A stretch of DNA of 64,000 nucleotides from an uncultured delta proteobacterium (GCA_963771465.1 CAVYTU010000013.1:436000-499999), one strand, 5' to 3'. Positions 8,420 through 33,811 are shown, counted from the stretch's first letter. The notes: generated from the sequence alone by a model not told the origin. Translations and numbers: made by a program.

Positions 8420-8818
8420 TTAGATTTCCCCAAGCTGTTTTTTGACGATGCATTCATTACAGATCGTGGAATTATCCGGCGCGTCTTGGGTCGACACGTA
8501 ATCGTCCATCGGCCACTGAGAGCAATCCGAACAGAGGTGCCAAGTATCGCCAGTTCTGGTTTTTCGATATTCGCCGCTGATTACCGAGCTTAGCGCTTTC
8601 TCTAAGTAAGGAGCAGCGAGGGGATAGAATCGGTTTGCGCGTTCAAGGATGAGGTTCACATCGTCGATTCGGCAGAACACCTCTACGATGGAGTAATTAT
8701 CAGTGAGCCTTCGCTCGATTATAGAATTTTTCAGGACGGCGTATCCACGGCTGGATAAAGGGAACCTACCCAGAAAACCTAGATAGGTATCTAACGGCAT
8801 CTTTACCAGAACCGCCAT
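8420..8818 (-). CDS. Family A domain fused to a WH-CxxC...CxxC Zn-binding domain
   Basis: Near-identical to 11713-12111; tail DTWHLCSDCSQWP...ICNEC. Confidence 0.85.
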   Translation of the reverse strand: MAVLVKMPLDTYLGFLGRFPLSSRGYAVLKNSIIERRLTDNYSIVEVFCRIDDVNLILERANRFYPLAAPYLEKALSSVISGEYRKTRTGDTWHLCSDCSQWPMDDYVSTQDAPDNSTICNECIVKKQLGEI

Positions 8819-8994
8819 AACCAAAAACCATATTTAGGTCACGTTTGGAGAGCTTTTAATTTCCAGCTCGCCCGCGGACGCATTTGCCGAGCTGCTCATA
8901 AAAAAAAGTGTTCATTACGCAGGAGAAGTGCTTGTAGAACTCGCCGAAGAGAGCGAGTTGCATACAAGCCCTTCTCAAGCATCAACACACTAGG

Positions 8995-11712: not shown

Positions 11713-12111
11713 TTAGAACTCCCCAAGCTGTTTTTTGACGATGCATTCATTACAGATCGTGGAATTATCCGGCGCGTCTTGGGTCGACACGTAATCATCC
11801 ATCGGCCACTGAGAGCAATCTGAGCAGATGTGCCAAGTATCGCCAGTCTTGGTTTTTCGATATTCGCCGCCGATTACCGAGCTTAGCGCTTTCTCTAAGT
11901 AGGGAGCAGCGAGGGGATAGAATCGGTTTGCGCGTTCAAGGATGAGTTTCAGGTCGTCAATTTCGCAGAACATTTCTACGATGGAGTAATTGTCTGTGAG
12001 CGTTCGCTCGATTATGGAATTTTTCAGGACGGCATATCCACGGCTGGATAAAGGGAACCTACCCAGAAAACCTAGGTAGGTATCTAACGGCATCTTTACC
12101 ACAATACCCAT
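11713..12111 (-). CDS. Family A domain plus Zn-binding domain (duplicate of 8420-8818)
   Basis: Protein and DNA align end to end with few substitutions. Confidence 0.85.
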   Translation of the reverse strand: MGIVVKMPLDTYLGFLGRFPLSSRGYAVLKNSIIERTLTDNYSIVEMFCEIDDLKLILERANRFYPLAAPYLEKALSSVIGGEYRKTKTGDTWHICSDCSQWPMDDYVSTQDAPDNSTICNECIVKKQLGEF

Positions 12112-12293
12112 AACCAAAACTATATTACGAAGCACTGGGCAATCAATGGGTTTCTGAAAATGGCAACAAACCAGTCTTACCTAATCAAATATTGAAAAAA
12201 GTGCCATCACGCAGTAGGAGTTCTTGCAGAACATCGCGGAGAGTTGGCAACGTATCGGCGGTGCTCAAATCCAACCTCCATCGGGTCAGGTAA

Positions 12294-21582: not shown

Positions 21583-22137
21583 ATGGCCAAATGGATTTTC
21601 GAACCGGGACATACGGCGGCGGAGTTTTGTGTGCGTCACATGATGGTGACTTTTGTCCGCGGCCATTTCAAAGATATTCACGGCACGCTTGTCTTCGATC
21701 AGGCGGACCCGGGCGCGACTTCCGTCGAGGCCACGATCGAAGCTTCGGGAATCTGGACAGGTGAAGCGGCGCGCGATGCCCACCTCAAGAGCGAGGACTT
21801 TCTCGACGTGGAGAAACATCCGACGATTACTTTCGCGGGGAAGCACGTCGAACTGGCGGGCGCGAACGAAGCGGTTCTCAGGGGCGAGTTGACGATTCGA
21901 GGTATAACCCGGACGGTGCCGCTCCGCGTCCACTATCTGGGAGAATGGCAGACTCCATGGTGGGAAGATGGCGTGGATAAGGGACCGAAAACTAGGGCGG
22001 GCTTTGCCGCCACCACCACAATCAATCGCCACGACTTCGGCGTGAGCTGGAATAGCACTTTAGACAGGGGTGGCGTCGTCGTCGGCAACATGGTTGAGAT
22101 CACCATCGACGCGGAAGCGATCCTGCAAGACGGATGA
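21583..22137 (+). CDS. YceI family protein
   Basis: F.VRHMMVTFVRGHF, RDAHLKSEDFLDVEKHPTITF, INRHDFGVSWN. Confidence 0.95.
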   Translation: MAKWIFEPGHTAAEFCVRHMMVTFVRGHFKDIHGTLVFDQADPGATSVEATIEASGIWTGEAARDAHLKSEDFLDVEKHPTITFAGKHVELAGANEAVLRGELTIRGITRTVPLRVHYLGEWQTPWWEDGVDKGPKTRAGFAATTTINRHDFGVSWNSTLDRGGVVVGNMVEITIDAEAILQDG

Positions 22138-22202
22138 TCTGCACAGCTTCTTCGAATCGAAATCGGCCTGCTGTAATTGAATCTTCTTCTCACGGCTTCT
22201 TT

Positions 22203-22257
22203 CTCCGGCGCATACACCACGATGCATCCACGGCAGGCCAACTCCTTCGCTGTGGTG
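22203..22257 (-). repeat. Orphan 3' tail copy 1 of the YncE-like gene
   Basis: Encodes TTAKELACRGCIVVYAPE, matching 25664-25718. Confidence 0.9.
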
Positions 22258-22410
22258 TTCGGCTTCACCTCGGCGGCGCTCTATGTGATCTGTACCTCTT
22301 GACGTTTACAGCCCAACGGAAGTAGAAGGAGGCCATGAGCGATCAGAAACACGGCCGCATTTATGGCCGTGCCAGCGTACGACCTCAGTGCCGGAAACTG
22401 GGGAAAGACC

Positions 22411-22590
22411 ATGGCGGAACCAAGGACGTGCGAAGAAATTGGCCTACGCCTGAACGATCTCGCGAATGAATACACCCAAACACTGAACGAAGATCCGCGC
22501 CACGTTGAGATCGAAAACGAGATATCAGTCCTGTACCTGCAGCGTTACATCTTGCAAAGACTGATAGAGCGCGATCGCCGGGAACACTGA
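22411..22590 (+). CDS. Small helical hypothetical protein
   Basis: MAEPRTCEEIGLRLNDLANEY...; GGGAAAG upstream. Confidence 0.45.
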   Translation: MAEPRTCEEIGLRLNDLANEYTQTLNEDPRHVEIENEISVLYLQRYILQRLIERDRREH

Positions 22591-22694
22591 ACCTCGACGC
22601 AGGTTTGTTCGTCTCGCGCGCCAAATGTGCAGTCAGCTTCTGACCCGCGATCCTACACGGGCTTCACGCTCCACGGGCGCCCGCTGATACGAAC

Positions 22695-22952
22695 CTAACA
22701 ATATTGCTTGAGCACTCGTGCCATTTGTTCCAATGCCCGGTCGAGAGCCTTTTGATTCATCAAACAACGGCGACATAGACAAGCAGCGCAGTGGCTTTGC
22801 ATTGGAAAGGCGTGCTGTGGTTGCCATACCACGGCGTGGGAGAAGCACCAACAATCTTGAGCTCCTATTGCGAGGCCGCACTCGTTCCTGGCGCCACAGA
22901 GCGGACAGCGAGTTTGATCGATAGGGGATTTCTTGATCAAGCTTAGTGTCAT
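22695..22952 (-). CDS. Cysteine-rich CWC family protein
   Basis: CPLCG..NEC.....CWCF...CLCRRCL; GAGAGG RBS. Confidence 0.85.
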   Translation of the reverse strand: MTLSLIKKSPIDQTRCPLCGARNECGLAIGAQDCWCFSHAVVWQPQHAFPMQSHCAACLCRRCLMNQKALDRALEQMARVLKQYC

Positions 22953-23132
22953 CGATTTTTCCTCTCATTTTTATGCAGATCGATGAACGAAGGGGACAAT
23001 GGCACAAGGCGAACTTCGCCCCTTCAAGCAGGACTCGAATTTCCCGAAGGAATAGACTCTGTCAGAATGTCGGGCTTACTTCCCGCGTCTCCCCTTCGGA
23101 GGTCCGGGTCATGTTCCGTGCGGTTGCACGGC

Positions 23133-23323
23133 CCGTCGGCAGGTCTTCGGACTTGTAGGCGGCAGCCCTTGCCGGGCTAATTTCTACTCGCCGTCGCTTC
23201 CCAGCCCCTAAGAGAGCCAGTGCTTATGACGGCTTTCGTTCCTACTTACCGCTGCGGGGCAGTCCCGGATTTCCACCGGGTTCCCTCTTTCAACGCTTTT
23301 AAACAAAGCGTACCGACAGCAAC
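23133..23323 (-). ncRNA. Cobalamin riboswitch
   Basis: Minus strand AGGGAACCCGGTGGAAATCCGGGACTGCCCCGCAGCGGTAA...CACTGG...CTGGGAAG...AAGTCCGAAGACCTGCC (B12 box). Confidence 0.95.
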
Positions 23324-23652
23324 TTCTACATATAGAACGAAGCGTGATGTTGTCAACCCGGAAAAATTCGCCTTTGGGCAACGGGCGAGGATCGGCGCCG
23401 CAAGTGTGCTAGGTTTTCGGCAACGTGTGAGTGCATCCTGGGTGGCAAGTCTTGAATCTTGACATTTCTAACTTCAGAATTTTGTTTCGTTCACACCGCA
23501 CAGGCACTTTGAATTGACAATTACGTCCACGCCGCCCTCCGTTGCTCACTCGCACGATTTGGGCGCGCTGACCCTCGTGCTGCTGGAGTGATGCTGCGCT
23601 CCGAAGCAAGGTCACAAGTTTGAATCTTGTCGGGTGCGCGAGACTCAAAGCC

Positions 23653-23742
23653 TTACTCGGGCGCATACACCACGATGTATCCACGGCAGGCCAACTGCTT
23701 CGCTGTCGTGGCCACATCGACGCGATTGTTGGCGAGACTCAC
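23653..23742 (-). repeat. Orphan 3' tail copy 2 of the YncE-like gene
   Basis: About 90 bp matching 25661-25750 including the stop codon. Confidence 0.92.
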
Positions 23743-23784
23743 GATCGAGCACGCAATAAAAGACTAGATTCCTTGCGGGACGTA

Positions 23785-24351
23785 CTACTTAATTCGCTTC
23801 GGGATACGGCCCGCGTCAACCTCCGCCTTGAGTAGCGGCAGCATGCCACCGGCTGCCAATTTCTTGATGATAAAGGGCGGCATGGGCTCGAACTTGAGTT
23901 CGACGCCCGAGGAAATGTTGCTGAGGCGTCCGTTTTCGAGATCGACTTCGAGCTCATCGCCTTGTTTAACCGCATCGAGAATCCCGACAAGCTCAACTAC
24001 CGGAAGCCCGCGTTCTATCGAATTTCTGAAAAAATAGGGAGACGACGTGTCGCAAAGCACGGCGGCTACGCCCGCCCCGAGGATGGACAGACAGGCATGA
24101 TCGTGATCATGTCCGAACCCCATGAATTCGCCGACGATGAAATCTCCCTTGCGAACCTTCTTGGGAAAATCGGGATCCAAATTGACCATACAGTACTTAC
24201 CGATCTCCTCCGCCGTATACATGCCTTTTTCCTGCAGCCCCTGATAAGTCCGATAACCGCATATCTCCCAGTCGACGTCCAAAACACCGCGAAACACCCA
24301 GGCGTTTCCTCTCATCGGCTTCATCTGTCCCAGCTTCCCATCCTCCGTCAT
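23785..24351 (-). CDS. LeuD/DmdB-like aconitase-family small subunit, atypical
   Basis: DPDFPKKVRKGDFIV, FFRNSIERGLPV, GGMLP; GCGSSREHA replaced by GFGHDHDHA; ATGA overlap with the large subunit. Confidence 0.88.
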   Translation of the reverse strand: MTEDGKLGQMKPMRGNAWVFRGVLDVDWEICGYRTYQGLQEKGMYTAEEIGKYCMVNLDPDFPKKVRKGDFIVGEFMGFGHDHDHACLSILGAGVAAVLCDTSSPYFFRNSIERGLPVVELVGILDAVKQGDELEVDLENGRLSNISSGVELKFEPMPPFIIKKLAAGGMLPLLKAEVDAGRIPKRIK

Positions 24352-25616
24352 AGATATTTTCTCGGATCGGTGATTTGCCCCTCCAAACACGAGGCGGCCA
24401 CGGTCATCGGGTTAGCCAAATAGATTTGCGCTTCTTCGCTGCCCATGCGCCCGGGATAGTTGGTTTGACCCGAGGCGATGCACACCTCGTCGGCCGAGAG
24501 CGGTGTATTGCCGCCCCATTCCATGCCCTCGTTGGGAATGGGCACGACACACTCGGCGTCGATGAAGGTGCCTATCAGGCCTTCATCCAGCGCCTGGCGC
24601 AGTATGTTGGTCGTGCCTGGAGTGATGTTGAGCACGACGCGCGGATGGATTTTTTTGCCCTTCAAGATCCGCGCGGCCATGCGCAAGTGTTCGATCCAGC
24701 TCCCGGCGTCGCTGCCGATGAATCCGCGGTCGATGGCGGTTCCTTCGAGTTCCTTGATCGATTTGACCAGATGGCGCTTCGGCGGCGGCACGACTTGCGG
24801 CTCCAAGCGGCTGACGTCGAGCTCAAAAACTTTGACATAATGCGCGTCCGGATCGCTTACTTGAGGCTCAAAATTCTCGTTTGTGCGCGCGCGCACGTAG
24901 TCAAGCGTCTTTTGATCCGGATTGATGATCGCCGTCCAGGCGCCGGTGAAAAGCGCCAGGGAGCAGAGCGAAAAACGCTCGCCCATACTCAAATCATTAA
25001 TAACCGGGCCCGTCCATTCGAGGGCGCCGCCACCTGCCCCCGTCGGCCCGATCCGGGATAAGAAATGTTCGAACACGTCGCGCGCGCAGGTGCCGGCAGG
25101 CAAATCTCCATTGACGACGATCTTGATGCTGCGGGGAACTCTCATCCAGGTTTTGCCGGTCATGAAATATTCGCCGCGGCCGTAAGAAAGCGTCGTGGCG
25201 AAGGCGCCCAACGCGCCGCTGCCGCTCGAATGCCCGTTGACGGCTTGTAAGTAAACCTCCCCGGGCAACGCCCAAGCCCTTTCGGCGGAAAACATGTTTT
25301 CAATGCCGGATCTACCAAGAGAATAAATATTCTCTTGGGGAATGCCGACCGCTTTGGCCCATTTTCTCGCGCGCATGCGTGAGCGCGCCGCACTGTGCGA
25401 AGCGGTGGCGCCGAGATGACCGTCGATGATTCGGATGAGCTTGGGGTCGAAAACGCCGACTTTCCATTCGGCGCAAAATTCTACGCCGCCGCGCAAGCTG
25501 CCGGCGTTTCCCATGGGCGTCGGACATCTGCTGCCAACTTCGATGTAGTCACCAGGCGAAACCTCTCCGCGGCCGGCGGCTTTGGCGAGAATTTTTTCGG
25601 TGATGGTTTTTCCCAT
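24348..25616 (-). CDS. LeuC/DmdA-like aconitase-family large subunit lacking Fe-S cysteines
   Basis: MGKTITEKIL, EPQV..P, NYPGRMG, AAS..G.ITDPR; GSC replaced by GSD, CxxC replaced by ExxE. Confidence 0.88.
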   Translation of the reverse strand: MGKTITEKILAKAAGRGEVSPGDYIEVGSRCPTPMGNAGSLRGGVEFCAEWKVGVFDPKLIRIIDGHLGATASHSAARSRMRARKWAKAVGIPQENIYSLGRSGIENMFSAERAWALPGEVYLQAVNGHSSGSGALGAFATTLSYGRGEYFMTGKTWMRVPRSIKIVVNGDLPAGTCARDVFEHFLSRIGPTGAGGGALEWTGPVINDLSMGERFSLCSLALFTGAWTAIINPDQKTLDYVRARTNENFEPQVSDPDAHYVKVFELDVSRLEPQVVPPPKRHLVKSIKELEGTAIDRGFIGSDAGSWIEHLRMAARILKGKKIHPRVVLNITPGTTNILRQALDEGLIGTFIDAECVVPIPNEGMEWGGNTPLSADEVCIASGQTNYPGRMGSEEAQIYLANPMTVAASCLEGQITDPRKYL

Positions 25617-25660
25617 GCACGTCGTCCGATGCGCCCCGAGCGTATGTCGACGAGAGGATC

Positions 25661-26731
25661 TTACTCCGGCGCATAAACCACGATGCATCCACGGCAGGCC
25701 AACTCCTTCGCGGTCGTGGCCACATAGACGCGATTGTTGGCGAGACTCACCGCGAGCGAGCGCGCGCCATTGGACGTCGGGATTTGTTGCAGGCCCTTTT
25801 TCGTCTTGGTGTCGACCACCATCAAAGTTCCACCGGAGGTGGAATGGTAGTACTGGCCGAGCTTGCGATTCATCGTCGAGCCGCCGTTGCCGCCGTATCC
25901 CGCGAGAACGGTTTCCACCTTGCCGGCCGCGATATCGAAGATCGCCATGTTGCCGCCGGGCTTGGAAGACGGGCCGTGGGCGCTGCTGCAACCGAGGAAA
26001 ATGGTCGAGTCCGAGACGATGGAGAGACTATGCGGATAACAGTCGAGTTCGTGCAGCTTCACGAGCTTGCCGGTTTTGGGATCGGTCTGCGCCAGCAATC
26101 CCTTGGCGGTGTCCGCGCGCGATACCGGAATGGCTGTGTAGAACATGCGGCTTGGCGCGTGATAGGCGGAGCGCTCCAGGTTCTCGCCGGATTCCGGAAT
26201 AGGGATCTTTGCGAGGATTTTGTGATCGGGCGCCGTCGAGATGAAGCTGAGGTACGGCGGATCCTCGTTCGAATTGGCGACGATGACGACGCCGATGTCT
26301 TCGCCCAAGGCCATGCCGTTGGCGCGCTTCTTTCCGCCGGTGGCGATCGTCGCCGTGATTTGGTTCGTCTTGGTGTCGACCACCTTGATCGTGCTGTCGC
26401 CGTCGCTCACCCATAGTTCGGCGCCGCCCTTGACGATCAGGACGCCATTGGGCCCCGAAGCATCGCCATCCTTCACCCGTCCGATGAAGCCCGGTATGCG
26501 CGCGACGAATTTGTCGGTCTTGGTGTCGAAGACGATGACGGATTTGTTGGTCTTGTCGGCGAGATAGCCGAGGCCCGTCGTCTGGTCGATGTCCATGATG
26601 CCGATGTCGGTGACCGGATCACCGGGAACTGAAATTTCTGCGACCTGTTTCAGGCCTGCGGCCTGCGCGGGACTAGCGGCGATCATGGCGGCGAGTGCGG
26701 CAACGATCACGGATTTGGAACGCAACATCAT
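25661..26731 (-). CDS. Secreted YncE/YVTN-like beta-propeller protein
   Basis: Signal peptide (AQA), repeated V.DTKT blades, ELWVSDGDSTIKVVD. Confidence 0.85.
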   Translation of the reverse strand: MMLRSKSVIVAALAAMIAASPAQAAGLKQVAEISVPGDPVTDIGIMDIDQTTGLGYLADKTNKSVIVFDTKTDKFVARIPGFIGRVKDGDASGPNGVLIVKGGAELWVSDGDSTIKVVDTKTNQITATIATGGKKRANGMALGEDIGVVIVANSNEDPPYLSFISTAPDHKILAKIPIPESGENLERSAYHAPSRMFYTAIPVSRADTAKGLLAQTDPKTGKLVKLHELDCYPHSLSIVSDSTIFLGCSSAHGPSSKPGGNMAIFDIAAGKVETVLAGYGGNGGSTMNRKLGQYYHSTSGGTLMVVDTKTKKGLQQIPTSNGARSLAVSLANNRVYVATTAKELACRGCIVVYAPE

Positions 26732-26985
26732 CGGCTCCCTCCCTGTAGCTTTTCTTGGCAAGCATTGGCGTCATATTATTACGATCGGACCCATGGACGC
26801 ATCACTACAACAGAGAGAGCCATAATGAAAGCTCTTTGAGCTACAAGCGAAAGCTGAAGTACGGCTCGTCGTAGTCGAGCCGTCGCCTCTTCTAACTGCA
26901 CACTTCTCCGAGCTTAAGCCTCATCTCTTCCTATTCCGCCTCGGACGGGCGCGCATTGAAATCGACCCAAATATGTTTGATGTTA

Positions 26986-27077
26986 TGCCGACGATTCGGC
27001 AAATGCTGAAATCTCGGCAGTCTCTTTGGTGCTCATTGTAAACATTTCAGAAAGTTACACGTGGTCTTTTCATTGCA
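26986..27077 (+). promoter_or_regulatory. sigma54 promoter with tandem palindromic upstream sites (copy 1)
   Basis: TGCCGAcgatTCGGCA plus TGCTGAaatcTCGGCA; TGTAA-N13-TTACA; TGGTCTTTTCATTGCA. Confidence 0.7.
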
Positions 27078-27109
27078 TTTATCTTCTGTCGTTCACGACG
27101 CAGAAATTA

Positions 27110-27185
27110 CAGATGGGCGAAGACGGCCATTCGTCTGAACATCGGTTGCGAGCGGAGCATCCGATGAATTCAAGACGCAAATAAT
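27110..27185 (+). pseudogene. Decayed remnant of the STAS-like gene
   Basis: cggagcatccgatgaattcaagacgcaaata matches 34085-34116. Confidence 0.7.
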
Positions 27186-27272
27186 GAGGTGTTCCAGCTC
27201 ACTCAAAGGAAACAGGACGATGTACAAAGGAATTGGTCGACAAGCGCTTGATCAATGGGACGGGATATCCAT

Positions 27273-27944
27273 ATGAAAACTGACACGAAGCTCATCTCGG
27301 TCAATGTTGGCCTGCCGCGTACCGTCATGAGCAATGGCGATCCGGTATCGACAGGAATTTTTAAAGAGCCGGTGGCGGGCCGTGTCATGCTTAGAACCCT
27401 CAACCTTGACGGTGACCGGCAGGCTGATCTTTCCGTACATGGCGGACCCAGCAAGGCAGTCTACGCTTATCCCTCCGAACACTACGACTACTGGACGCAC
27501 GAATTTCCTGAGATGAAACTACCTTGGGGCATGTTCGGCGAGAACTTCACGACCGCGGGACTGCTTGAAACGGAGTTAAACGTCGGTGACAAATTTCGCG
27601 TCGGCTCTGCCATCGTGATGGCGACCGAGCCGCGCATGCCTTGTTACAAGCTCGGCATCAGATTCGGCCGCTCCGACATCATCAAAAGATTCCTGGCGAG
27701 CGAGCGCACGGGAATCTATTTTGCGGTGCTGCAAGAGGGCGAAGTCGGAGCAGGCGACCCGATGGAACTCATCGAAAAAAGCCAAGACAGTGTAAGACTC
27801 AGCGATATCACCGCACTTTATACCCGCGAGAAGCATAACGTCGGATTGCTTCGTCGCGCGATCGAAGTGGCGACGCTTCCCGAAAGTTGGAAGGACTATT
27901 TCCGCCAGCGGCTTGCGAAATTGACCGGTTCTTCACGGGAATGA
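27273..27944 (+). CDS. MOSC domain protein (YiiM-like), copy 1
   Basis: GDRQADLSVHGG..KAVY, FGEN, PRMPCYKL. Confidence 0.95.
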   Translation: MKTDTKLISVNVGLPRTVMSNGDPVSTGIFKEPVAGRVMLRTLNLDGDRQADLSVHGGPSKAVYAYPSEHYDYWTHEFPEMKLPWGMFGENFTTAGLLETELNVGDKFRVGSAIVMATEPRMPCYKLGIRFGRSDIIKRFLASERTGIYFAVLQEGEVGAGDPMELIEKSQDSVRLSDITALYTREKHNVGLLRRAIEVATLPESWKDYFRQRLAKLTGSSRE

Positions 27945-33139: not shown

Positions 33140-33811
33140 ATGAATTCTGCCACGAAAATTATCTCCGTTAATGTCGGTCTTCCGCGGGTCGTCATGAGCA
33201 ACGGCGATCCGGTATCGACGGGAATTTTCAAAGAGCCGGTAGCCGGCCGTGTCGTGCTGAGAACGCTCAATCTCGACGGCGACCGTCAGGCCGATCTCTC
33301 AGTTCACGGCGGACCGAGCAAGGCAGTCTATGCTTATCCCTCCGAACACTACGAATACTGGAAGCGCGAATTGCCCGAGATCAAACTCCCCTGGGGCATG
33401 TTCGGTGAGAACTTCACGACCAAGGGAGTGTTGGAAGCCGAACTAAACATCGGCGACAAGTTTCGCGTCGGCTCTGCCACCGTGATGATAACCGAACCGC
33501 GCATGCCTTGTTATAAGCTCGGCATCAAGTTCGGCCGCTCTGACATGGTTAAGAAGTTCATGGCGAGCGCGCGCACGGGGTTTTATTTTGCGGTGCTGCA
33601 AGAGGGTGAAGTCGGAGCGGGTGACGCAATCGAACTGATCGAAACAAGCAAAGACAGGTTCAAGCTCAGCGACATCACCGCCCTCTATACTCACGAGAAG
33701 CACAACATCGGATTGCTTCGCCGGGCAATTGAAGTCGAGGCTCTTCCCGAAAGTTGGAAGAACTATTTTCAGCAGCGACTTGAGAAATTAACTGGCCCTT
33801 CACAACATTGA
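33140..33811 (+). CDS. MOSC domain protein (YiiM-like), copy 2
   Basis: Highly similar to 27273-27944. Confidence 0.95.
   Translation: MNSATKIISVNVGLPRVVMSNGDPVSTGIFKEPVAGRVVLRTLNLDGDRQADLSVHGGPSKAVYAYPSEHYEYWKRELPEIKLPWGMFGENFTTKGVLEAELNIGDKFRVGSATVMITEPRMPCYKLGIKFGRSDMVKKFMASARTGFYFAVLQEGEVGAGDAIELIETSKDRFKLSDITALYTHEKHNIGLLRRAIEVEALPESWKNYFQQRLEKLTGPSQH

Follow-up and report, generated by a model that had tools for sequence, protein, structure and literature searches.

Conserved carboxylates at the iron-sulfur ligand positions mark an apparently undescribed clade of bacterial LeuCD-like proteins

In a 64,000-nucleotide stretch of DNA from an uncultured delta proteobacterium (GCA_963771465.1 CAVYTU010000013.1:436000-499999), the whole of which is referred to here as the window, we studied a gene pair encoding a two-subunit, LeuCD-like protein of the aconitase fold in which Asp, Glu and Glu (D/E/E) occupy the positions of the three cysteines ligating the iron-sulfur (Fe-S) cluster. 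Three open reading frames (ORFs) follow each other on the minus strand: the gene of a beta-propeller protein (25664-26731, 356 amino acids), which we do not judge to be part of the enzyme, the LeuC/HacA-like large-subunit gene of the aconitase family (24351-25616, 422 amino acids, stop codon TGA at 24348-24350; PF00330) and the LeuD-like small-subunit gene (23788-24351, 188 amino acids, stop codon at 23785-23787). Frames and stop/start positions agree with an earlier reading of the sequence alone (the original prediction) in that both subunit ORFs are full length, unbroken and coupled by an ATGA overlap, the small-subunit ATG (24351-24349) being shared with the large-subunit TGA. The N-termini of the pair show no signal peptide by eye. 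The label "cysteine-free" which the same reading attached to the enzyme is wrong, seven Cys residues persisting in the large and four in the small subunit, though none of them at a ligand position.

The large subunit matches PF00330 with 162.1 bits (cutoff 28.7) and stays below the curated NCBIfam cutoffs, reaching at best 319.8 bits versus 385 (NF001614) and 276.4 versus 610.65 for LEU2. The small subunit is likewise below the NCBIfam cutoffs (leud 98.2 versus 245.85 bits; LEUD_arch 97.9 versus 108.95) and gives no Pfam match, including PF00694, at E <= 0.01; a protein-cluster search returned nothing beyond generic aconitase/LeuC names. The same genome (6.9 Mb, 99% complete) contains a single D/E/E copy together with a canonical LeuC (G000:C17:763519-764595) showing the DSHT, GSCTN, CSMC and NRNF motifs, and the pair in the window is, as far as sequence can tell, not a leucine-pathway enzyme.

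Among solved structures, the isopropylmalate/citramalate isomerase LeuC of M. jannaschii (4kp1/4nqy, E 1.4e-63) comes closest to the large subunit. In the gapless alignment of the two, the first cluster cysteine changes from figsC to FIGSD, resulting in D303 (codon GAC, 24708-24710, minus strand as for all codons given here) at the position of aconitase Cys358, and the CxxC changes from npsCsaC to PNEGME, resulting in E363 (GAG, 24528-24530) and E366 (GAA, 24519-24521) at the positions of Cys421 and Cys424. These codons lie where they had been predicted to lie, and the expectation of two to three base changes per replacement holds as well, GAC being two and GAG and GAA three changes each away from any Cys codon (TGY). 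The alignment equally bears out the changes predicted for the other active-site motifs, i.e. GvCH to GIEN (104-107), DSHT to NGHS (127-130) and NRNF to QTNY (384-387). The Cys of the GICH motif of methanogen isopropylmalate isomerase (IPMI) and homoaconitase (HACN), which adjoins the cluster according to PMC8184944, corresponds here to E106, E106-N107 of GIEN being encoded by GAA AAC (25296-25301). Aligned with pig aconitase (5acn), N107 corresponds to H147, N127-G128-H129 (25230-25238) to D165-S166-H167, S219 to N258, F223 to E262, D303 to C358, E363 to C421, Q384-T385 (CAA ACC, 24462-24467) to N446-R447, N386 to N448 and R390 to R452; E366, which is the second CxxC Cys by the gapless LeuC alignment, stands beside an insertion in the aconitase alignment. 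D65-G66-H67 occupies the site of D-H in LeuC, and the equivalents of aconitase His101, His167 and Arg452 are retained as His67, His129 and Arg390.

Alignment of the small subunit with LeuD (3vba, E 1.4e-34) supports the further claim that GCGSSREHA has become GFGHDHDHA: the residues H81-D82-H83-D84-H85 (CAT GAT CAC GAT CAT, 24097-24111) replace the S-S-R-E-H loop, which we take to be the Ser642 loop of aconitase, and the serine of the GSSRE loop is absent. Ser642 is described as the general base of aconitase in PMC8184944. From the residue mapping onto aconitase and LeuC we conclude that the ligands and the serine base are changed, as are most of the hydrogen bonds surrounding the labile Fe.

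An AlphaFold2 model of the large subunit (mean predicted local distance difference test, pLDDT, 89.2) superimposes on 4kp1 with a template-modelling (TM) score of 0.92 and on aconitases with 0.82-0.84. The heterodimer, modelled together with two Fe ions that did not enter the score, was predicted with an ipSAE of 0.94 (median of three runs) compared to 0.00 for the best of three controls, with at least 95% contact agreement between runs and a partner pLDDT of 91; of 80 solved complexes 58 attain the pass mark used, which was calibrated without accompanying ligands, as do 2 of 110 mismatched pairs. The pair being a textbook one, this result may be owed to its likeness to solved aconitases. In the predicted complex small-subunit residues 79-84, comprising the HDHD loop, contact large-subunit residues 128, 222-223, 225-227, 279, 281, 385 and 387-390, so that the His/Asp loop lies on the remodelled pocket, beside the place formerly taken by the cluster.

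Conservation was analysed in an alignment of the large subunit with its 120 best matches (92% to 52% identity), the 121 rows comprising 73 with D/E/E, 46 with C/C/C and 2 with E/T/gap at the ligand positions. Columns 107, 303, 307, 363, 366, 384 and 385 split D/E/E from C/C/C rows almost perfectly. The D/E/E rows read Asn (or Thr) 107, Met108, Asp303, Trp307, Glu363, Glu366, Gln384 and Thr385 and carry a two-residue insertion at 38-39, whereas the C/C/C rows, referred to as the sister clade, read His107, Val108, Cys303, Arg307, Cys363, Cys366, Thr384 and Cys385. Position 303 is Asp in 73/73 and Cys in 46/46 rows, respectively, and a Glu-to-Arg change at column 162 goes along with the loss of the cysteines. 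In 43 of its 46 rows the sister clade thereby has a fourth Cys, the one of TCNY, aligned with aconitase Arg447, while 70 of the 73 D/E/E rows have Thr there; examples of the fourth Cys are P0040, P0041 and P0043 and the locus L044:6830-8092. The sister clade may hold a four-cysteine, non-catalytic cluster in an aconitase fold. A 24-sequence alignment covering both clades shows H67, R102, E106, N127-G128-H129, R281, N386 and R390 to be invariant and C218 and C379 to be at least 90% conserved in either clade, E106 being invariant through the whole family. Among 121 small subunits the motif G-x-G-H-D-H-D is at least 95% conserved.

Selection was estimated with the Nei-Gojobori method by comparing eight orthologues of each gene at the DNA level (28 pairs). 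Approximate omega values (dN/dS) are 0.029-0.080 in 23 of the 28 large-subunit pairs (four are saturated, one is identical) and 0.065-0.172 in 15 of the small-subunit pairs (one more has dN 0 and omega 0, 12 are saturated); the least saturated comparisons gave 0.065 (window versus L001, large subunit) and 0.15 (window versus L006, small subunit). D/E/E is thus, in line with the original prediction, a conserved trait under purifying selection and not decay: 73 of 121 rows have it, omega is far below 1 and the closest homologues keep it. The proposed co-conservation of D/E/E with HDHDH stands in so far as both are conserved under purifying selection, but HDHDH is not tied to D/E/E, since it also occurs with C/C/C large subunits (L044, small subunit GYGHDHDH; L047, GYGHDHES). 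Three further pairings, between named Chloroflexi large and small subunits, were made solely by matching the lengths of the longest contigs. More distant relatives (L048-L050, 47-48% identity) have G-C-G-H-D/S-H, three Cys and TTN.

A maximum-likelihood tree (quick search, LG+G4, trait columns left in) of 51 family representatives less than 80% mutually identical and 9 outgroup sequences, rooted on canonical LeuC-like rows, unites 17 D/E/E rows and one E/T/gap row in one clade (SH-aLRT 99) nested inside the C/C/C rows, so that on this topology the cysteine loss is derived and a single event within the sampled set. The immediate sister, P0037, is C/C/C and already has W307. Because HDHDH, NGH and GIE are also found in the Cys-retaining sister clade (L044: C/C/C with GYGHDHDH), these motifs predate the cysteine loss and coexist with a cluster site, and the one concerted switch of the original prediction resolves into changes of different age. 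When 1.84 billion 50%-identity representatives were searched with a profile, the family shrank to just two of them, P0051 (D/E/E, 692 bits) and P0245 (546 bits), the next match scoring 414 bits, which attests to its compactness at 50% identity and pointed to no new function; 143 of the 151 rows aligned from this search are C/C/C, indicating that ligand loss is rare in the wider LeuC-like radiation. Outside the family, the LeuC-like P0300 (S/A/N) and P0281 (C/V/E) also miss ligand cysteines and keep xRNF, DSHT being kept in P0300 only and P0281 reading DID-A; ligands may have been lost independently there. In two small-subunit homologues of 322-324 amino acids (P0190, P0212) the LeuD-like part is joined to an additional SnoaL_2 (PF12680) domain.

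The gene pair is accessory and patchy in its distribution. A search at E <= 1e-120 detected it in 2 of 201 genomes sampled from the class, one of them the window's own, and in none of four genomes of the same genus (92-99% complete); a phylum sample of 151 genomes yielded solely canonical-type matches with at most 41% identity. The seven genome loci with D/E/E belong to metagenome-assembled genomes (MAGs) labelled Binatia, "delta proteobacterium" or Syntrophobacter. Among the named rows, two D/E/E rows are labelled Burkholderiales and all 14 C/C/C rows Chloroflexota, the sister clade consisting mostly of Chloroflexota-labelled MAG proteins annotated "aconitase family protein". Near-identical DNA and contigs occur in soil metagenome runs from several studies, and a metagenome scan with two patterns, one of them generic to archaeal-type LeuC, listed 80 loci of which only L043-L051 are family members. 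The MAG holding L001 has a second, more divergent copy beside an HMGL-like gene (L008:8001-9830); the tblastn match to it is split over several frames, pointing to frameshifts or long-read errors. A full-text literature search, with most subscription journals outside it, returned no description of a Cys-less LeuCD-like enzyme or of the clade, in line with the prediction that the clade is undescribed, and no characterisation of the sister clade either; literature matches to HDHDH concern unrelated metal-binding peptides. The D/E/E clade is therefore apparently an undescribed, cluster-ligand-free clade of the LeuCD-like family.

Clues to the substrate come from the gene neighbourhoods of 17 related loci. 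An HMGL-family gene directly follows the small subunit in L002, L007 and L008 and is closest to isopropylmalate/homocitrate synthases (276 bits versus a cutoff of 517; PDB 3rmj, E 1.3e-41), while L044, L049 and L050 contain a gene of the phosphoenolpyruvate (PEP)-mutase/isocitrate-lyase family closest to methylisocitrate lyase (194 and 128 bits versus a cutoff of 354). The synthase-like gene of L002 spans L002:9916-11154 and the lyase-like gene of L044 spans L044:5756-6709, beside the subunit pair at L044:6830-8639. Amidohydro_2 genes are present in L002, L008, L043 and L045, Cupin_2 domains and solute-binding proteins of several families occur in related loci as well, and the distant L048-L050 have glycyl-radical and AFOR genes nearby. 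Aconitase-type enzymes canonically act together with 2-alkylmalate synthases and isocitrate-type lyases. The recurrence of synthase-like and lyase-like neighbours suggests malate/isocitrate-type substrates rather than a wholly new chemistry, the substrate probably still being a substituted malate, a maleate or an isocitrate-like acid. The PEP-mutase-family genes and neighbouring NMT1/phosphonate-type binding proteins allow the speculation of a phosphonate or sulfonate substrate, against which weighs that the best-scoring family for the lyase-like genes is methylisocitrate lyase, with no cutoff reached. A cofactor-independent two-subunit maleate hydratase, for which the literature search returned no paper, is a possible lead.

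We favour, with slightly better than even confidence, a reading according to which the pair forms a functional cytoplasmic heterodimer, a cluster-free and cation-containing derivative of the LeuCD-like family. The parts of this reading differ in strength: a functional, cluster-less, non-leucine enzyme is very probable; a cation at the D/E/E site is fairly probable; that such a cation serves as the catalytic Lewis acid is a tentative proposal which we consider unlikely. Slightly less likely again is the most far-reaching version, an active aconitase-superfamily enzyme needing no cluster, in which a hard cation (Mg, Mn, Ca or even a lanthanide) at an all-oxygen site would act as Lewis acid and a His of HDHDH as base, resulting in an oxygen-tolerant, iron-sparing hydro-lyase moving horizontally among soil bacteria. 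The putative all-oxygen site would comprise Asp303, Glu363 and Glu366 together with Glu106, Asn107, Gln384 and Thr385, and is read from the three invariant carboxylates, the lost Arg and His and the gained Asn, Gln and Thr.

The enzyme could have arisen in two steps. In the ancestor of the branch the GSSRE loop would have become G-H-D-H-D-H and Asp165-Ser166-His167 would have become Asn-Gly-His, Glu262 being exchanged for Phe, Arg447 for Cys and the GICH Cys for the invariant Glu, with the three cluster cysteines kept. In the sub-branch of the window, C358 would then have been replaced by D303, C421 by E363, C424 by E366, the extra Cys by T385, His147 by N107 and a nearby Arg by W307, after which the protein would no longer bind a [4Fe-4S] cluster. 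The resulting cavity, with D303, E363, E366, E106, N107, Q384 and T385 as oxygen donors, might hold a hard cation (Mg, Mn, Ca or Fe(II)) taking over the role of the cluster. As the cluster site of the sister clade appears saturated by four Cys, this role was probably an organising and not a redox one; four Cys would leave no open Fe for the substrate, suggesting that the chemistry of the family is independent of a labile Fe. Since all other pocket residues are shared, the D/E/E clade probably performs the reaction of the sister clade without a cluster. His67 and His129 could serve in acid-base catalysis and Arg390 in carboxylate binding, with His81 in place of the serine base, the likely reaction being the hydration/dehydration or isomerisation of one of the acids considered above.

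Several points weigh against the reading of a cation-containing enzyme. D303, E363 and E366 are missing from the predicted interface list, in which an unlisted residue is to be taken as uncertain, not as distant. Ligation of the cluster by the fourth Cys of the sister clade is suggested solely by covariation, and many dS values exceed 1, making the omega values approximate. Each recurrent neighbour occurs in only 3-4 of the 17 loci, several of which are short, one member per neighbour family was scanned with Pfam/NCBIfam and the others were assigned by BLAST clustering, and the neighbours in the window itself (YceI, Cys_rich_CWC, MOSC/YiiM, redoxin and enoyl-CoA hydratase) yield no pathway clue. 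Contigs of two soil metatranscriptome libraries (X15, X16) match portions of the two subunit genes and of the propeller gene; such coverage does not show transcription, nor do the portions left uncovered speak against it. Finally, P0113 and P0122 lie inside the Cys-less clade and have Glu at 303, Thr at 363 and the CxxC loop deleted (GAEA, S/ATN), and this loss of the triad agrees better with a structural than with a catalytic role.

These two sequences speak for the main rival, in which the ancestral cluster was already non-catalytic and D303, E363 and E366 form a structural plug, a metal-free network of hydrogen bonds or salt bridges, with catalysis residing in the His/Asp loop, NGH and E106 and possibly a separate metal on the HDHDH loop. 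The covariation of the fourth Cys with the three ligands fits this proposal, the Glu-to-Arg change at column 162 accompanying the switch may do so too, and so does the similarity of the two clades, which are about 55-64% identical, share every other invariant pocket residue and probably catalyse the same reaction. We nevertheless rate it as rather unlikely: three carboxylates invariant in 73/73 rows, combined with the exchange of Arg for W307 and of His for N107, would leave a net negative buried charge, which is unusual without a counter-ion and is more readily reconciled with a bound cation.

A non-catalytic sensor, chaperone or nucleic-acid binder, resembling the cluster-free iron regulatory proteins IRP1 and IRP2, is improbable. 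Such a function would agree with the loss of the cluster ligands and the Ser base, with the position of the pair outside any metabolic operon in the window and with IRP structures among the fold matches, the IRP precedent itself being general background. It is at odds with the retained equivalents of His101, His167 and Arg452 and the many further invariant polar pocket residues, with the very strong selection on the large subunit and with the synthase, lyase, amidohydrolase and transporter genes surrounding related loci, and no nucleic-acid-binding domain was found in Pfam/NCBIfam scans of the pair.

The full model of the original prediction, in which the substitutions arose as one concerted change that created a single metal site of carboxylate and His ligands and the enzyme works as a system with a secreted YncE-like propeller, is very improbable. 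In its favour, the HDHD loop touches the pocket in the predicted complex, the propeller stop codon lies 44 nucleotides upstream of the large-subunit ATG with no terminator-like site found between them in a scan, and a soil DNA contig (X2, record 26) spans the propeller/large-subunit junction. Against it, HDHDH is shared with the Cys-retaining sister clade, the propeller, whose N-terminus resembles a signal peptide by eye, looks exported whereas the enzyme looks cytoplasmic, and repeats flank the pair, with other contigs joining the propeller tail to different DNA. A conserved adjacency of the propeller was not borne out, tblastn matching it in L006 alone among the 17 related loci, where it is located downstream and not upstream of the pair.

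Retention of an Fe-S cluster through Asp/Glu ligands or other cysteines deserves still less credence. Single Asp or Glu ligands of clusters are known and the large subunit has seven other Cys; moreover, in an engineered AcnX a Glu ligates a [2Fe-2S] cluster (PMC8184944). The three ligands and the neighbouring fourth Cys have, however, changed together, and the best-conserved cysteines, C218 and C379, are common to both clades and do not represent a new clade-specific site. We also know of no natural cubane held by three carboxylates, which we count against this explanation. Strain-specific decay or an assembly artefact is practically negligible in view of 72 other D/E/E sequences reaching down to 52% identity, omega values far below 1 and near-identical contigs in soil runs of several studies.

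Comparison with known systems places the pair next to archaeal-type LeuCD and the homoaconitase HacAB (M. jannaschii MJ0499/MJ1277 and MJ1003; 4kp1, 4nqy, 3vba, 4kp2, 2pkp), with which it shares the two-subunit organisation, here with overlapping genes, 31-34% identity and TM scores of 0.87-0.92 in the large subunit, the match of the small subunit (E 1.4e-34) and the equivalents of His101, His167, Asn448 and Arg452. It differs from them by D/E/E in place of Cys, by GIEN, NGHS, QTNY and GHDHD, by scores below every NCBIfam cutoff and by the canonical LeuC elsewhere in the genome. With the sister clade (P0041, P0043, P0064; L044) it has in common 52-63% sequence identity, GIE, NGH, F223, W227, R390, the GHDHD(H) small subunit and similar neighbours, the sister clade unlike the window pair keeping the three ligand Cys, the fourth Cys (TCNY), His107 and Arg307. 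Mitochondrial aconitase (5acn, 7acn) has the same fold in domains 1-3 (TM 0.82-0.84), its active site mapping one-to-one, and is only 20% identical. Its domain 4 is fused to the other domains, one Fe site of its catalytic [4Fe-4S] cluster is open and its base is Ser642, the ligands and the Ser being missing in the window pair. Apo IRP1 and IRP2 share the aconitase fold (matches to 2b3x, 3snp and 6vcd) and represent known cluster-free states of it. They are, however, eukaryotic RNA-binding regulators retaining their Cys ligands, while in the bacterial two-subunit protein these are replaced and conserved as carboxylates.

A hydro-lyase beside a lyase of the isocitrate-lyase/PEP-mutase family, as suggested by the neighbours in related loci, is also found in DmdAB with dimethylmalate lyase and in AcnD/PrpB of the methylcitrate cycle. 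DmdAB and AcnD are Fe-S dependent, unlike the clade of the window with its lost ligands, and the lyase-like neighbours in related loci stay below the methylisocitrate-lyase cutoffs. AcnX is likewise a branch of the superfamily whose cluster site is rearranged and whose substrates are non-canonical; according to PMC8184944 it binds [2Fe-2S] or [3Fe-4S]/[4Fe-4S] clusters via three Cys, and its TM score to our model is only 0.47-0.57. The same source describes the characterised members of the aconitase superfamily as Fe-S enzymes. The D/E/E clade, widespread and strongly conserved, represents a natural experiment on giving up the cluster site or swapping it for a simple metal site, with the Cys-retaining sister clade as a ready comparison. 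To our knowledge, every characterised catalytic member of the superfamily uses its cluster as Lewis acid and is consequently oxygen- and iron-sensitive; if our far-reaching proposal were true, the window pair would be the first member of the superfamily to be catalytically active without needing an Fe-S cluster. The analysis further brings to light a LeuCD-like family which is large, uncharacterised and recognisable by its GHDH-type small subunit, and for which the database label "3-isopropylmalate dehydratase" is almost certainly wrong.

The propeller reaches 34.6 bits with the YncE model NF052280 (cutoff 400), and only the generic YVTN repeat TIGR02276 passes (37 versus 27.85 bits). A link of the propeller to lanthanides or pyrroloquinoline quinone (PQQ) was considered and rejected as unsupported, the match to a "PQQ-associated propeller" model scoring 34.9 bits versus a cutoff of 287.3. 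In L006 the order is large subunit, small subunit, propeller; in the window it is propeller, large subunit, small subunit, followed by a 104-nucleotide remnant of the propeller 3' end. The last ~60-107 nucleotides of the propeller gene are present three times as direct repeats, none assigned a strand, bracketing the pair and a segment of ~1.4 kb with a Cys_rich_CWC ORF (22695-22952). Copy 1, the 3' end of the propeller gene itself (25660-25750), bounds the pair upstream; copy 2, the remnant (23651-23754), begins 30 nucleotides past the small-subunit stop and is 93% identical to copy 1; the partial copy 3 (22199-22289) is 68% identical over 91 nucleotides, its first 59 nucleotides being 96.6% identical to the propeller tail of L006. 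The order is cyclically permuted relative to L006; either a tandem duplication accompanied by deletions or recombination involving the repeat could be the cause.

At 25659/25660 DNA contigs from two soil runs (X1, X2) depart from the propeller tail, continuing with an identical foreign sequence in both, and one contig from an RNA library (X15) links 23596 to 25660, skipping the pair, with only 20 nucleotides on one side; the pair may be missing here from related strains. A large serine recombinase of 698 amino acids (L001:5267-7360; Resolvase, Recombinase and Zn_ribbon_recom domains) is encoded ~640 nucleotides upstream of the pair in L001, the locus with a 95% identical large subunit. Taken together, the direct repeats, the diverging contigs and this recombinase suggest that the pair is a small mobile or recombining module and that the adjacency of the propeller reflects a local rearrangement. 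A scan of 22000-27400 detected no sigma-70-like promoter, which is uninformative for the host phylum. The surroundings have the look of a variable island: the MOSC/YiiM-like ORFs at 27255-27944 and 33140-33811 have near-identical N-terminal stretches, and the ORFs at 8420-8824 and 11713-12135 share a stretch of ~40 amino acids where the GC content of the window is lower (49-51% over 1-12 kb versus 55-63% elsewhere).

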